Positions 17,157 through 36,682 of a DNA stretch of 64,000 bases are shown here, one piece after another; the stretch's first letter is position 1, and every line of letters begins with the position of its first letter. A program made the translations under genes and the position numbers. Source of the stretch: Waddliaceae bacterium (GTDB taxonomy: Bacteria > Chlamydiota > Chlamydiia > Chlamydiales > Waddliaceae); contig CAVRUH010000001.1 of NCBI GenBank assembly GCA_963724325.1, forward strand, positions 320,001-384,000, read 5' to 3'. The notes under the pieces are model-generated. The model was not told where the DNA came from, did no database searches, and was given only the letters and a program-made list of their open reading frames with translations.

Positions 17157-17267
17157 ATTTATCTATAATTTTATATAACTAGTGTCAGATATTTGACAGT
17201 ATTTGTCAATGATTAATTACTGAGAATTGCATGCCGTGGGACTCGGCATGCCGCAAAAACGGACATC

Positions 17268-18053
17268 ATGTTAGAAATTTATACAACCAACATCCTCTGG
17301 GTATTCGTACTCATGACCTACTTTTGGATCCTCGGAACCCGAATTAAAAATATAAGTGTAGTCGACATTGGATGGGCCTTCGGATTCGTCGTCTGCGGCG
17401 TTAGCGCTGTTGTTTTTGGACAAGGCGATCCATTAAAGAAAGGAATTCTCCTTCTCATGGTCCTCATTTGGAGCCTTCGTTTGGGATTCTATCTTATAAA
17501 AAGATTCCGTCTCAATTACGAAGACCCCCGCTATACTCAAATAAAAAAGAACATGGGAAGCAAATGGATAAATTCAAAAATATTACTTATGTTCTTATTT
17601 CAAGGGTTTTTGGTCGTCGTTTTATCCACTCCATTTGTCATTGTTTCTACAAATTCAATCTCCAATTGGAGCATTTTCGAATTTGCAGGTATTCTGATTT
17701 GGACTATCGGTCTAATTGGAGAAACCATTGCCGACCAGCAAATGTCAAAATTTAAAACCATCCATAAGGGTTCGAAAAAAGTCTGTGATATAGGCCTGTG
17801 GAGATACTCAAGGCATCCCAATTATTTCTTTGAATGGGTGATTTGGATCGGATTCTCCCTATTTGCTCTGCCTGCATCATATGGATGGACATCTATCATT
17901 TCAGTCGCCATCATGTATTACTTGCTCAGATACCTCTCTGGAGTCCCCCCATCCGAGGCCCAGGCCCTAAAAACCAGGGGGCGTGCCTACAAAGAATATC
18001 AATCAAAAACTAGCATTTTCTTCCCCCGCATGCCTAACGGGCGTCAACAATAA
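17268..18053 (+). CDS. DUF1295 / steroid 5-alpha-reductase-like membrane protein
   Basis: SVVDIGW, EDPRY, ETIADQQ, GLWRYSRHPNYFFE. Confidence 0.88.
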   Translation: MLEIYTTNILWVFVLMTYFWILGTRIKNISVVDIGWAFGFVVCGVSAVVFGQGDPLKKGILLLMVLIWSLRLGFYLIKRFRLNYEDPRYTQIKKNMGSKWINSKILLMFLFQGFLVVVLSTPFVIVSTNSISNWSIFEFAGILIWTIGLIGETIADQQMSKFKTIHKGSKKVCDIGLWRYSRHPNYFFEWVIWIGFSLFALPASYGWTSIISVAIMYYLLRYLSGVPPSEAQALKTRGRAYKEYQSKTSIFFPRMPNGRQQ

Positions 18054-18073
18054 CCGTCCCTACCCAGCAGCAG

Positions 18074-18148
18074 CATCCTTCATATCCTGCCGCTTTGCGA
18101 TCATGCATATCTTGTTATTCCTAGGGATAACAGGATATGCATGATCGC
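18074..18148. repeat. Palindromic repeat family, copy A (right arm truncated)
   Basis: CATCCTTCATATCCTGCCGCTTTGCGATCATGCATATC-TTGTTATTCCTAGGGATAACAG-GATATGCATGATCGC. Confidence 0.9.
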
Positions 18149-18162
18149 TCTACCCCCAACCC

Positions 18163-18297
18163 CTCTTTTGACAAGTCAAATATTACATCTTCCCATCCTT
18201 CATATCCTGCCGCTTTGCGATCATGCATATCCTGTTATCCCTAGGAATAACAAGATATGCATGATCGCAAAGCGGCAGGATATGAAGGATGGGAGGA
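18163..18297. repeat. 27-bp leader plus ~105-bp palindrome, copy B (3' flank of GxxExxY)
   Basis: CTCTTTTGACAAGTCAAATATTACATC, then 41-bp perfect arms TCCCATCC...GCATATC / GATATGC...GGATGGGA. Confidence 0.92.
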
Positions 18298-18309
18298 AAT
18301 GATGGTTAT

Positions 18310-18717
18310 CTATATGCTGTGGGTGGCATAATGGTCAGGATGATAAAGCCTCCTGTATTCCACTTTTCGTTTTCCAAAATTAACCAGCAGCCCTATATAT
18401 GTATCGGAAACTTTCAGATAGTTGATTAATTGTGCTTGGTGTTCGCCAAGTAACGATTCACAGCATTTCAATTCAACAATTACAACACCATTAACAACAA
18501 TATCTGCAATATACAAACCTATTTTCCTTCCCCTGAATAACACTTCAAACCTTTTTTCTACTTCTACCTCAAATCCCTTCTCTTTTAAAGCAATGAAAAG
18601 AGCATTTTTATAAACCGATTCTAAAAAGCCAGAACCAAGCTCATTCATCACATCAAAACAGCATCCCAAAATTACTTCAGTTTCATTCGACAACAGCGAC
18701 TGACCATTTTGCATCAT
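18310..18717 (-). CDS. GxxExxY protein (PD-(D/E)XK-like)
   Basis: GFLESVY matches GxxExxY; also ADIVV...VELK and QLINY. Confidence 0.93.
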   Translation of the reverse strand: MMQNGQSLLSNETEVILGCCFDVMNELGSGFLESVYKNALFIALKEKGFEVEVEKRFEVLFRGRKIGLYIADIVVNGVVIVELKCCESLLGEHQAQLINYLKVSDTYIGLLVNFGKRKVEYRRLYHPDHYATHSI

Positions 18718-18762
18718 TTTCTATTTCCCACATTTATCGATGATACATTTTACACAAAACCG

Positions 18763-18907
18763 CTCTTTTGACAAGTCAAATATTACATCCTCCTATCCTC
18801 CTATCCTTCATATCCTGCCGCTTTGCGATCATGCATATCTTGTTATTCCTAGGGATAACAGGATACGCATGATCGCAAAGCGGCAGGATATGAAGGATGG
18901 GAGGATA
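18763..18907. repeat. 27-bp leader plus ~115-bp palindrome, copy C (5' flank of GxxExxY)
   Basis: The leader is identical to 18163-18189, exactly 600 bp away; palindrome at 18794-18907. Confidence 0.92.
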
Positions 18908-19029
18908 AGATGAAATAATGATCGCTTAATTGCCGTGAGCTACCTCGAACCTGTACCCCTCTTTTATCTTGTAATAACTATCACTGATGGGATATGATGT
19001 TAATTTAATATGAGGACGTAAGAACATAG

Positions 19030-20733
19030 ATGCGAGAAATACCAACGGCATACCACACATTAGGGCTGCAACTAAGTACATCGTCTATAAAAGGGGCAGA
19101 ATTAATCCTGCGAAAAAATATACCTCAACTCATCGAAACATTCGAAGTCAATGTAAAGCCGCTTTACATTGGAGATGAACAAAATAAATTAAAGACATTG
19201 CTAAGCAAGACACTCACTATAACTTGCCTAGAGACCTCTGAGGTTCTGGCTAGAACGCTTGAGCTAGAACTGACTAAGGAAAATGACATCGACGCTGTGC
19301 TAGAGTTCCAGGCTGAGCCATTGTTACCCTATCCAACAAATGAAGGACTCATCGACCGCATCATTGTTGAGAAAGAAACAGAAGGGACATCCCTAACTGT
19401 TGTGGCTGCAAGAAAGGACTTCGTCGCAAAGCACCTAGAAAGATGGCATGAGTACGGAGTTGAGCCCGAAACTATCAGTTGCATCCCCGCCGCGCTTGCT
19501 GAGTTTTCAAAATATTTTTGTCCCATCGATACCGCGCATCTTGTAGTATATTTTGGAGAAGACTCAACAACATTTGCTTTAGTTAAATCTGGGAAGCTGC
19601 TATCAGCACAGTCACTCAATTTTGGAACTAATGACCTTATGAAGGCATTCTCCGAAAACACACATATTACTCCAAATGCCATTTTGGGAACGTTTTCAAA
19701 ACTTGATTTCGCAGAATTCGACAGGGAGCATTATCCTAAACTCACTGCTGCCATCAATGGATTTACACTGGAAGTTGCTAAGAACTCCATGTCGCTTATC
19801 AAGAAATTTCAAGAATACGAAGTATCTAATGTCTTTGCTACAGGAGAAGGAGCGACACTGCTCAATTTTGTAAAAGTTATTTATCAGAATCAGAAATTAA
19901 CTCCGCTGCAGCCCCTCGTAAAATCAGAATTTCAAACCACTCCAGAAACGCTTCACAAATATGCCATACCTATAGGAGCCGCCCTGTCGGGACTTCATGG
20001 AAATAACAACGGGATAAACTTCCGGCAGAATGAATACAGTTATCCTCACCCCTGGAAAAGACTGCAAAAACCTTTAATCGCCTACTTTTCCCTGTGCATC
20101 GGTGTTGCCCTATCCATTTATCTAGTCGGCAACGCTTATGTTGCAAAGCAAGACGATAATTTACGAACCGAGTATGTCCACCTCTTAGCATCGATGAAAA
20201 AGCCCTATAGTCAATTTGAAACCGAATTTCTTGAAGCAACACAACCCAATAAGAAGCCAGAAACGGCAAAGGTTGATATATTAAGCCTATCACAGAACGA
20301 TATCCTATACCGCCTCGATTTCCTTAAGAAAGAGCTCAATAGCACACCAGACATGTTTCCATTACTCCCAAATATTCCACGGGTCACCGATGTTTTGGCA
20401 TGGTTATCGAATCTCCCTGCGGTGAAAGCAGCATCTGAATCATCGGAAATAGAAGATAGCAAGATACAGCTTACTAGTTTTAGCTATAAGATGATGAAAC
20501 GTCCCGAATTTAATAAGAAAAAGGAACCCTATCAGGCTAAAGTTGAACTAGAATTTACTACAGCCGTTCCGAGAAATGCACGAGAGTTTCATGATGCCCT
20601 GTTGGAGCCCAATAATTTTGTTGACCCCACAGGAGAAGTCAAGTGGAATGCTGAGCGTGGAAAATATCGAGTTTCTTTCTTCCTGAAGGATAAAACGTAT
20701 TATCCTTCAAAGTCCGGGGGTTCCAGTGTTTAG
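19030..20733 (+). CDS. PilM/GspL-like protein (actin-like cytoplasmic domain, TM helix, periplasmic domain)
   Basis: LEFQAEPLLPY, GVEPETISCIPAAL, IPIGAAL...INFRQ followed by a TM helix; occupies the conserved chlamydial yggT-recA interval. Confidence 0.65.
   Translation: MREIPTAYHTLGLQLSTSSIKGAELILRKNIPQLIETFEVNVKPLYIGDEQNKLKTLLSKTLTITCLETSEVLARTLELELTKENDIDAVLEFQAEPLLPYPTNEGLIDRIIVEKETEGTSLTVVAARKDFVAKHLERWHEYGVEPETISCIPAALAEFSKYFCPIDTAHLVVYFGEDSTTFALVKSGKLLSAQSLNFGTNDLMKAFSENTHITPNAILGTFSKLDFAEFDREHYPKLTAAINGFTLEVAKNSMSLIKKFQEYEVSNVFATGEGATLLNFVKVIYQNQKLTPLQPLVKSEFQTTPETLHKYAIPIGAALSGLHGNNNGINFRQNEYSYPHPWKRLQKPLIAYFSLCIGVALSIYLVGNAYVAKQDDNLRTEYVHLLASMKKPYSQFETEFLEATQPNKKPETAKVDILSLSQNDILYRLDFLKKELNSTPDMFPLLPNIPRVTDVLAWLSNLPAVKAASESSEIEDSKIQLTSFSYKMMKRPEFNKKKEPYQAKVELEFTTAVPRNAREFHDALLEPNNFVDPTGEVKWNAERGKYRVSFFLKDKTYYPSKSGGSSV
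19149..19171. promoter_or_regulatory. Perfect palindrome, candidate protein-binding site (copy 1, intragenic)
   Basis: CAATGTAAAGC-C-GCTTTACATTG; the central 21 bp are identical to 38388-38408. Confidence 0.7.
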
Positions 20734-25481: not shown

Positions 25482-25615
25482 ATCATCTCCCATCTTCTTC
25501 TATCCTGCCCATCATGCCGCTTGCGATCATGCATATCCTGTAAATTCCAAGGAAAACGGGATATGCATGATCGCAAGCGGCATGATAGGCAGGATGGAAG
25601 AAGATGGGAGATGAT
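25482..25615. repeat. Palindromic repeat family, copy D (between recA and ispA)
   Basis: ~57-bp near-perfect arms containing GCCGCTTGCGATCATGCATATCC / GGATATGCATGATCGCAAGCGGC around a 20-bp spacer. Confidence 0.9.
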
Positions 25616-36294: not shown

Positions 36295-36682
36295 ATCTTC
36301 CTCTTATCCTGTCGCTTGCGATCATGCGCATCCTCTTAACCATTCTCATAATCATCCTCCTCTTATCCTGCTTATCCTGCCGCTTGCGATCATGCGCATC
36401 CTGTAATTTCTGTGCATGCAAACTATTAACAGGATATGCATGATCGCAGGCGGCAGGATAAGCAGGATAAGAGGAGGATGATTATGAGAATGGTTAAGAG
36501 GATGCGCATGATCGCAAGCGGCAGGATAAGCAGGATAAGAGGAGGATGATTATGAGAATGGTTAAGAGGATGCGCATGATCGCAGGCGGCAGGATAAGCA
36601 GGATAAGAGGAGGATGATTATGAGAATGGTTAAGAGGATGCGCATGATCACAAGCGGCAGGATAAGCAGGATAAGAAGATGA
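36295..36682. repeat. Palindromic repeat family, expanded array (68-bp units)
   Basis: Two inverted units at 36295-36402, a spacer, then 68-bp units starting at 36431, 36499, 36567 and 36635 (partial). Each has the core GCATGATC(G/A)CA(A/G)GCGGCAGGATA. Confidence 0.92.

Follow-up and report, generated by a model that had tools for sequence, protein, structure and literature searches.

A GxxExxY nuclease gene bracketed by inverted arms of the dominant hairpin repeat in a Waddliaceae genome, a candidate cassette with likeness to REPIN/RAYT systems

The DNA analysed in this study, called the window below, is a 64-kb stretch (G000:C1:320001-384000) of genome G000, which comprises 2.37 Mb in 11 contigs with about 40% G+C. 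The locus of interest contains one small nuclease gene, three palindromic hairpins and two copies of a short leader. Its surroundings are protein-coding, with a DUF1295 gene and a PilM-like gene as the flanking genes. The features are listed below in window coordinates, with the strand for the gene and its promoter-like site; the hairpins and leaders have no assigned strand.

18074-18148: hairpin A, truncated, the outer part of one arm gone; inverted copy of hairpin B at 18217-18291
18163-18189: leader copy 1, 27 nt; matches the promoter leader, the adjoining -10 region (18148-18162) having diverged
18187-18304: hairpin B, the gene's 3'-side arm; inverted relative to hairpin C
18310-18717, minus strand: GxxExxY / PDDEXK_3 nuclease gene, 135 aa, intact, with profile matches
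18774 to 18747, minus strand: promoter-like site TTGTCA-16-TAAAAT, 10 of 12 positions matching, internal to the arms
18763-18789: leader copy 2, 27 nt, an exact repeat in the promoter region of the gene
18791-18912: hairpin C, the gene's 5'-side arm; inverted relative to hairpin B
25495-25601: single gene-less hairpin of the same family, directly past the stop codon of a gene
36301-36680: gene-less array of the same family with six arms, the first two on one strand and the remaining four on the opposite one

The 27-nt leader CTCTTTTGACAAGTCAAATATTACATC was found exactly at 18163 and 18763, a spacing of 600 bp for which the chance expectation is 0, and no further copy was found in the 2.37-Mb genome with up to 5 mismatches allowed. 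Hairpin A was 100% complementary to positions 18217-18291 of hairpin B over 75 nt, including the asymmetric centre, and hairpins B and C were 96% complementary across 116 nt; hairpin B is therefore inverted relative to A and C. DNA folding gave -58.3 kcal/mol (z -17.9) for hairpin B, -56.9 kcal/mol (z -15.8) for hairpin C, -21.7 kcal/mol (z -7.8) for the truncated hairpin A and -69.6 kcal/mol (z -17.6) for the hairpin at 25495-25601. The array at 36301-36680 has a period of 68 bp and forms a large compound palindrome right after a gene end. Hairpin B begins 6 nt past the stop codon of the nuclease gene, and no terminator-like T-run was found at the cassette. Hairpin A, leader copy 1 and hairpin B together are a neighbouring gene-less partial cassette, a deletion derivative in which the 27-nt leader is kept and the gene is absent.

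A preliminary description of this DNA had reported the leaders and their spacing, the truncated third palindrome, the flipped centre of hairpin B and the gene-less relatives at 25.5 and 36.3 kb, and all of these were recovered. Its reading of the locus as two directly repeated modules stood in part: the leaders repeat exactly, but the layout is better read as the inverted arms B and C plus the gene-less A-leader-B unit. A pure 600-bp tandem duplication was rejected as the full origin of the modules because B and C are inverted and the gene-plus-arms unit also occurs elsewhere. The preliminary description had also suggested that the upstream leader may supply a -35 for the gene. The TTGTCA-16-TAAAAT site is present, and its -35 overlaps the small palindrome TTTGAC-TT-GTCAAA, but the region contains 2 promoter-like sites against a shuffle mean of 3.6, that is, no excess.

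No known transposase was found inside the unit, and the nuclease was the only ORF of at least 60 aa between the arms with a family match. The Rfam search gave no rRNA match in the window and one tRNA only for the window as a whole. Public reads were compared with window positions 17600-19400. Seven runs, with no RNA run among those listed, contained only 6–9% of the sampled words; four of them assembled only into short pieces, without joints or a bridging contig, so that these reads have no bearing on excision or expression.

The 135-aa protein matched PF13366 PDDEXK_3 (E 5e-38) and TIGR04256 GxxExxY (E 4e-38), in agreement with the first assignment of the gene as a PD-(D/E)XK-like GxxExxY nuclease. 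The profile score of 130.4 bits was above the cut-offs of both Pfam (22) and NCBIfam (35). The residues of the GxxExxY motif and the D...ExK core (G30, E33, Y36, D72, E82, K84) are present. Across 33 sequences G30, E33, Y36, D72, K84 and Q96 were invariant, and E82 was conserved in at least 90%. The AlphaFold model was confident (pLDDT 91.9). A sequence search of solved structures gave no match to the nuclease; the best solved folds for the model were Cas4 SSO0001 (E 8e-5, TM 0.53) and lambda-type exonucleases, with Hjc resolvases lower. The predicted fold confirms a PD-(D/E)XK nuclease core and does not indicate a substrate. Judged from the conserved residues, the model and the nearest folds, the enzyme looks active. 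No PADLOC or PHROGs family matched the nuclease. In its published description the PF13366 / GxxExxY family is listed with function unknown and multiple transfers (PMC3424549).

The 10-nt core of the hairpins, which the preliminary description had proposed to count, was present in 96 exact copies at 37 loci of the genome. In the window the core pattern gave 14 matches against 0.04 expected. A profile search with the arm detected 247 arms distributed over 82 loci; 243 of them lay outside crude ORFs. Convergent genes enclosed 37 of the 82 hairpin loci, compared with 297 of 1793 intergenic regions genome-wide, and divergent genes enclosed only 6; promoter regions are avoided. All twelve of the most frequent 14-mers in G000 belong to this family, among them GATCGCAAGCGGCA with 167 occurrences, and the family is the most abundant repeat of the genome. 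The arm consensus consists of phased 9-nt units, namely CTTATCCTG, CTTATCCTG, CCGCTTGCG, ATCATGCAT and ATCCTGTTA. A conserved GTAG/CTAC tetranucleotide at the hairpin foot is a feature of REP sequences; the 54-nt consensus built on 96 arms contains neither GTAG nor CTAC.

The two arms of the cassette are each a full hairpin of about 120 nt built of phased ATCCTG-type units of about 9 nt. They are the source or the twin of the dominant hairpin repeat. The window locus is the only one of the 82 hairpin loci that holds a GxxExxY gene, and the arm subtype of the cassette, GCTTTGCGATCATGC, is minor (about 10 of 247 arms). The second full-length GxxExxY gene of G000 (C5:248284-248640) is without arms, and its bracketing score, defined below, was 10, the level of the controls. 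A weak PF13366 match (22.6 bits) within a 542-aa frame at G000:C1:510825-511013 may be a fused or decayed copy.

Hairpin arms were contained in 22 of the 62 tandem arrays of G000 with a period of at least 60 nt. The array units include unique flanking DNA, in one array with the 5' piece of a tRNA gene and in others with gene ends. These hairpin arrays (G000:C5:4407-5547, C7:10999-12028, C7:447963-448710 and 19 more) have 2–6 copies with periods of 68–248 bp and 93–100% identity.

Other mobile elements of G000 were compared with the hairpins, since a RAYT or IS transposase with the same ends would provide them with another owner, and none was found. An IS of about 1.89 kb encodes a 534-aa large serine recombinase with Resolvase, Recombinase and Zn_ribbon domains and is present in seven copies, as follows.

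L086 (G000:C1:23800-26200): serine-recombinase IS copy
C1:26015-27838: serine-recombinase IS copy
C1:27909-29732: serine-recombinase IS copy
C1:440992-442815: serine-recombinase IS copy
C7:112451-114274: serine-recombinase IS copy
C7:230245-232068: serine-recombinase IS copy
C7:257358-259181: serine-recombinase IS copy

This IS has ends of its own, and in 7/7 copies both ends adjoin the arm at an invariable position, overlapping by 2 nt (CA). The hairpin arms are therefore a site-specific target of the IS, and the IS was rejected as their owner. In its published description, ISPpu9 similarly sits in REP sequences (PMC8450116). A second IS type is located in a hairpin-array spacer of G000. With two other IS types in hairpin loci, the hairpins attract mobile genes.

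The only Y1_Tnp (IS200-like) match in G000 was a 180-aa ORF (E 7e-7) at C5:207304-207846 (L085:505-1047, minus strand). Beside it lie tandem arrays of 106–112 bp with another palindromic repeat, GGAGTGACCCAATTCATTGGGTC (G000:C5:207909-209473), which is the second commonest word family of the genome. The Y1 gene and these arrays are likely a genuine RAYT/REP pair. The sole Y1 gene has another repeat, so the hairpins do not belong to a RAYT.

Genome G001 belongs to the same genus but is distant (its PilM-like protein is 58% identical), and exact insertion junctions or a target-site duplication are beyond the reach of the comparison. It has four GxxExxY genes, one of which encodes a protein 69% identical to that of the window (74% over aligned columns). 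Inverted arms of the hairpin family seen in the window enclose this gene; they match at 92% over 49 nt, and the match continues to about 80 nt. Both cassettes are collinear from end to end: an arm is followed by a stretch rich in units, a small palindrome covering the -35, the -10 box, the gene, further units and the second arm. The -10 box TTTGTGTAAAAT is identical at 12 of 12 positions, and the G000 cassette differs from that of G001 solely in that both its ends have an additional outer half-hairpin.

The two cassettes occupy different places, and empty sites, which the preliminary description had suggested looking for in relatives, were found reciprocally. The G001 cassette adjoins gatC. 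At the site of the window locus, G001 has 275 bp between a YGGT-like and the PilM-like gene, with no DUF1295 gene, cassette or hairpin. Between the 451-aa gene and gatC in G000 the cassette is absent, and the motif CTTGCAGGTTTTT, which lies beside the end of the G001 cassette, is common to both genomes. The comparison shows gene, promoter and arms to be one heritable, relocating unit. The gene-less copies in G001 are elements of 180–250 bp whose inverted ends are long and whose AT-rich centre varies; in the cassette the gene takes exactly this central place. The DUF1295 gene next to the cassette (window 17268-18053) is also missing at the syntenic G001 site; the presence/absence difference therefore comprises 17157-19029 and goes beyond the cassette alone.

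A tree of the 39 GxxExxY loci of the phylum grouped the protein of the window with those of G001, G006, G133 and G158 (support 0.996). Members of this clade were 62–74% identical to the window's protein, and all other proteins were at most 42% identical. AGGAT-type units were found in the arms of 4/5 clade loci vs 0/34 others, counts that overstate independence because the compared genomes are kin. The arm unit of the fifth clade member, AACGATA, is a one-letter variant, and CACAGAG units were found at 11 loci, all outside the clade. The covariation of repeat and protein, which the preliminary description had proposed to test, is thus shown for arm unit type and protein clade as far as these sequences represent them; co-inheritance of the gene with its arms would by itself be enough to produce it.

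The flanks of the five clade cassettes, from five genomes and two families, had no homology to one another (tblastx, 1e-6). With up to 2 mismatches, the 18-mer GATCGCAAGCGGCAGGAT had 202 occurrences in G000, 233 in G001 and 11 in G006. The genome G133, which belongs to another family, has it just twice, as the exact core of the two arms of the orthologous gene, and no arm-core copies were found there outside these arms. The repeat core therefore travels with the gene, even without a repeat family. Gene-less copies of a cassette's own arms were present in its genome for 6 of the 7 cassettes tested; matches to arms numbered 247 in G000, 233, 33 and 6 for three families in G001, 78 in G099 and 28 in G121.

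Bracketing was scored as the strongest inverted match between the two 300-nt flanks of a gene, and the controls were taken from these loci too, with windows of identical geometry shifted by 800 or 1000 nt. The window locus scored 103.5, whereas no control scored above 14.5. Of the 39 loci within the phylum, 27 were above the 95th percentile of 139 controls and 25 were above the control maximum; significant arms were absent at the other 12. The 39 loci exclude two with the gene at a contig end (L016, L077), two weak matches (L019, L030), three fragments (L025, L028, L029) and three identical copies of L015 (L020, L026, L031).

The cross-phylum sample was the best 80 of 594 relatives of the CACAGAG-clade alignment and is biased to that clade. 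It came from Bacteroidota, Acidobacteriota, Chloroflexota, Planctomycetota, Verrucomicrobiota, Cyanobacteria, Proteobacteria, two archaeal MAGs and others, and one of the 80 loci was dropped because its flank was too short. Among these best 80 of 594 relatives, 65 of the 79 scored loci were above the 95th percentile of 277 controls, 49 were above the control maximum, and significant arms were absent at 14. Enrichment of inverted repeats around GxxExxY genes was thus found both within the phylum and beyond it; the preliminary description had proposed to test their flanks for palindromes. Many of the arms among the best 80 of 594 are similar whatever the host and begin with TTCACC[AG]C[AG]GAG. 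The comparison shows an inverted-repeat-bracketed architecture that is general for the GxxExxY family. The window locus fits this class of cassettes by its PF13366 gene, an inverted repeat above controls, phased short units and gene-less copies.

The GxxExxY proteins of loci L087-L166, from many bacterial phyla and the two archaeal MAGs, are 53–75% identical to the chlamydial CACAGAG-clade consensus, and such identity across phyla indicates very wide horizontal transfer. In G007 a 1.76-kb IS630-type element (DDE_3 transposase, 345 aa; L015:1287-3053), present in about 35 identical copies, contains, as a passenger, a complete GxxExxY cassette with CACAGAG arms. Multiplication of the cassette by this IS630-type element accounts for the 50 PF13366 matches of the 1.6-Mb genome.

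We speculate that the window locus is the single gene-bearing cassette of the dominant hairpin family of G000, in which the nuclease has its own arms as substrate and the gene-less hairpins move through its action in trans. We give this reading roughly an even chance. Each arm of the cassette would have grown into a full hairpin of about 120 nt. In its own arms the nuclease would recognise either the phased units or the extruded hairpin and would cut at that place, and the cassette could then be copied or moved by host repair, recombination or replication. The gene-less hairpins would be derivatives mobilised in trans, which would make the system a PD-(D/E)XK analogue of REPIN/RAYT. A gene-plus-arms unit that moves between genomes points to an undescribed kind of selfish DNA.

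The main rival reading is that the gene is an independent selfish or hitch-hiking gene, similar to a homing endonuclease, which landed in pre-existing hairpins that had been spread by other means. The behaviour of other elements agrees with this: the serine-recombinase IS entered one fixed arm position in 7/7 copies, a second IS lies in an array spacer, and the G007 cassette rides in an IS630-type element. The gene is also found at just 1 of 82 loci and in a minor arm subtype, and in G001 it occupies the place of the variable AT-rich centre of the gene-less copies. However, the exact 18-nt core in G133 is confined to the gene's two arms, so that there was no pre-existing family to land in. The arm unit type tracks the protein clade across families, cassettes from many phyla share TTCACC[AG]C[AG]GAG-type arms independently of the host, and the single copy of the gene gives no sign of successful homing. 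We consider such a landing unlikely.

The arms might instead act on RNA or transcription, as an RNase III stem like that of 23S rRNA intervening sequences, or as a terminator or an insulator of an acquired gene, with the nuclease having a cellular or defence role unrelated to the repeat. The avoidance of promoter regions, with 37 of 82 loci convergent and 6 divergent, would suit such a role, as would the position of hairpin B 6 nt past the stop codon, and a plus-strand read-through transcript would pair B with C. By contrast, the cassette promoter is internal to the arms, so the mRNA contains one arm only. A T-run of terminator type is absent, the arms have no Rfam match and the protein has no PADLOC or PHROGs match. 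The joint relocation of gene and arms and the more than 200 gene-less copies per genome would also be left unexplained. As the whole explanation this is quite improbable in our judgement; an RNA-level role of the arms is possible as an added function. That the gene is a bystander caught by chance in the palindrome-driven local duplications common in G000, where 22 of 62 arrays include arms with unique flanks or a tRNA piece and where leader plus hairpin were duplicated at 600 bp spacing, is highly improbable and may be regarded as excluded by the comparative data, given the recurrence of this gene with these arms at a different locus of G001 and in three more genomes, the 27/39 and 65/79 loci (the latter from the best 80 of 594 relatives) above controls, and the inverted, not direct, orientation of B and C.

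By analogy, the architecture of the proposed cassette resembles REPIN/RAYT with a different enzyme, and the RAYT/REPIN-like layout suggested in the preliminary description is borne out by the inverted arms and the gene-less copies. REP/REPIN-RAYT systems (PMC8266576, PMC8049555) have one gene per family flanked by inverted copies of a hairpin repeat, a cognate repeat for each gene, and gene-less copies that are far more numerous, intergenic and often in arrays, all as in the cassette family. In contrast to these systems, the cassette enzyme is PD-(D/E)XK and not an HUH/Y1 transposase, with PDDEXK_3 as its only Pfam match. The arms of about 55 nt and hairpins of roughly 110 nt consist of phased units of about 9 nt and lack GTAG in their consensus, the cassette gene changes its locus between congeners, and G000 has a separate Y1 gene with another repeat.

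Three other systems share some of these features. IS elements with their MITEs are similar in having a gene-bearing unit whose terminal inverted repeats are common to many shorter gene-less copies, here including the adjoining deletion derivative; the cassette differs in lacking a DDE, HUH, serine or tyrosine transposase and in encoding a protein of just 135 aa. Some 23S rRNA intervening sequences carry a small ORF for S23p, a four-helix-bundle protein. Like the cassette, they have a small ORF in inverted arms that could form a long stem and are distributed sporadically, but the cassette lies between protein-coding genes, encodes another fold and has its own promoter inside the arms. Free-standing homing endonuclease genes, some with the PD-(D/E)XK fold, are also small selfish nuclease genes with heavy horizontal transfer; unlike them, the cassette is not in an intron or intein and has its own inverted arms, a single gene copy and many gene-less arm copies. 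In the literature on the GxxExxY/PF13366 family, on Parachlamydiaceae palindromic repeats and on REPIN/RAYT, no description of a nuclease-hairpin pairing was found.

A broader proposal, which we make tentatively and hold to be somewhat doubtful, is that GxxExxY nucleases are the mobilisers of an unrecognised class of hairpin repeats in bacteria and archaea, each clade reading its own unit (ATCCTG-type here, CACAGAG-type in most phyla). In G000 such a nuclease would have seeded the dominant repeat of more than 200 arms and thereby created landing pads for the serine-recombinase IS and hot spots of tandem duplication.

The window locus is a suitable test case. Its arms are long, near-perfect hairpins, no repeat family of the genome is larger than the cognate one, a congener with reciprocal empty sites is available, and the separate Y1/REP-like pair provides an internal control. 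If members of the family act on the arms that surround them, this would give a function to the widespread PF13366 / GxxExxY family. It would also add a new enzyme class to the few proteins that spread bacterial repeats, and it would explain the origin of the abundant intergenic hairpins in many genomes.
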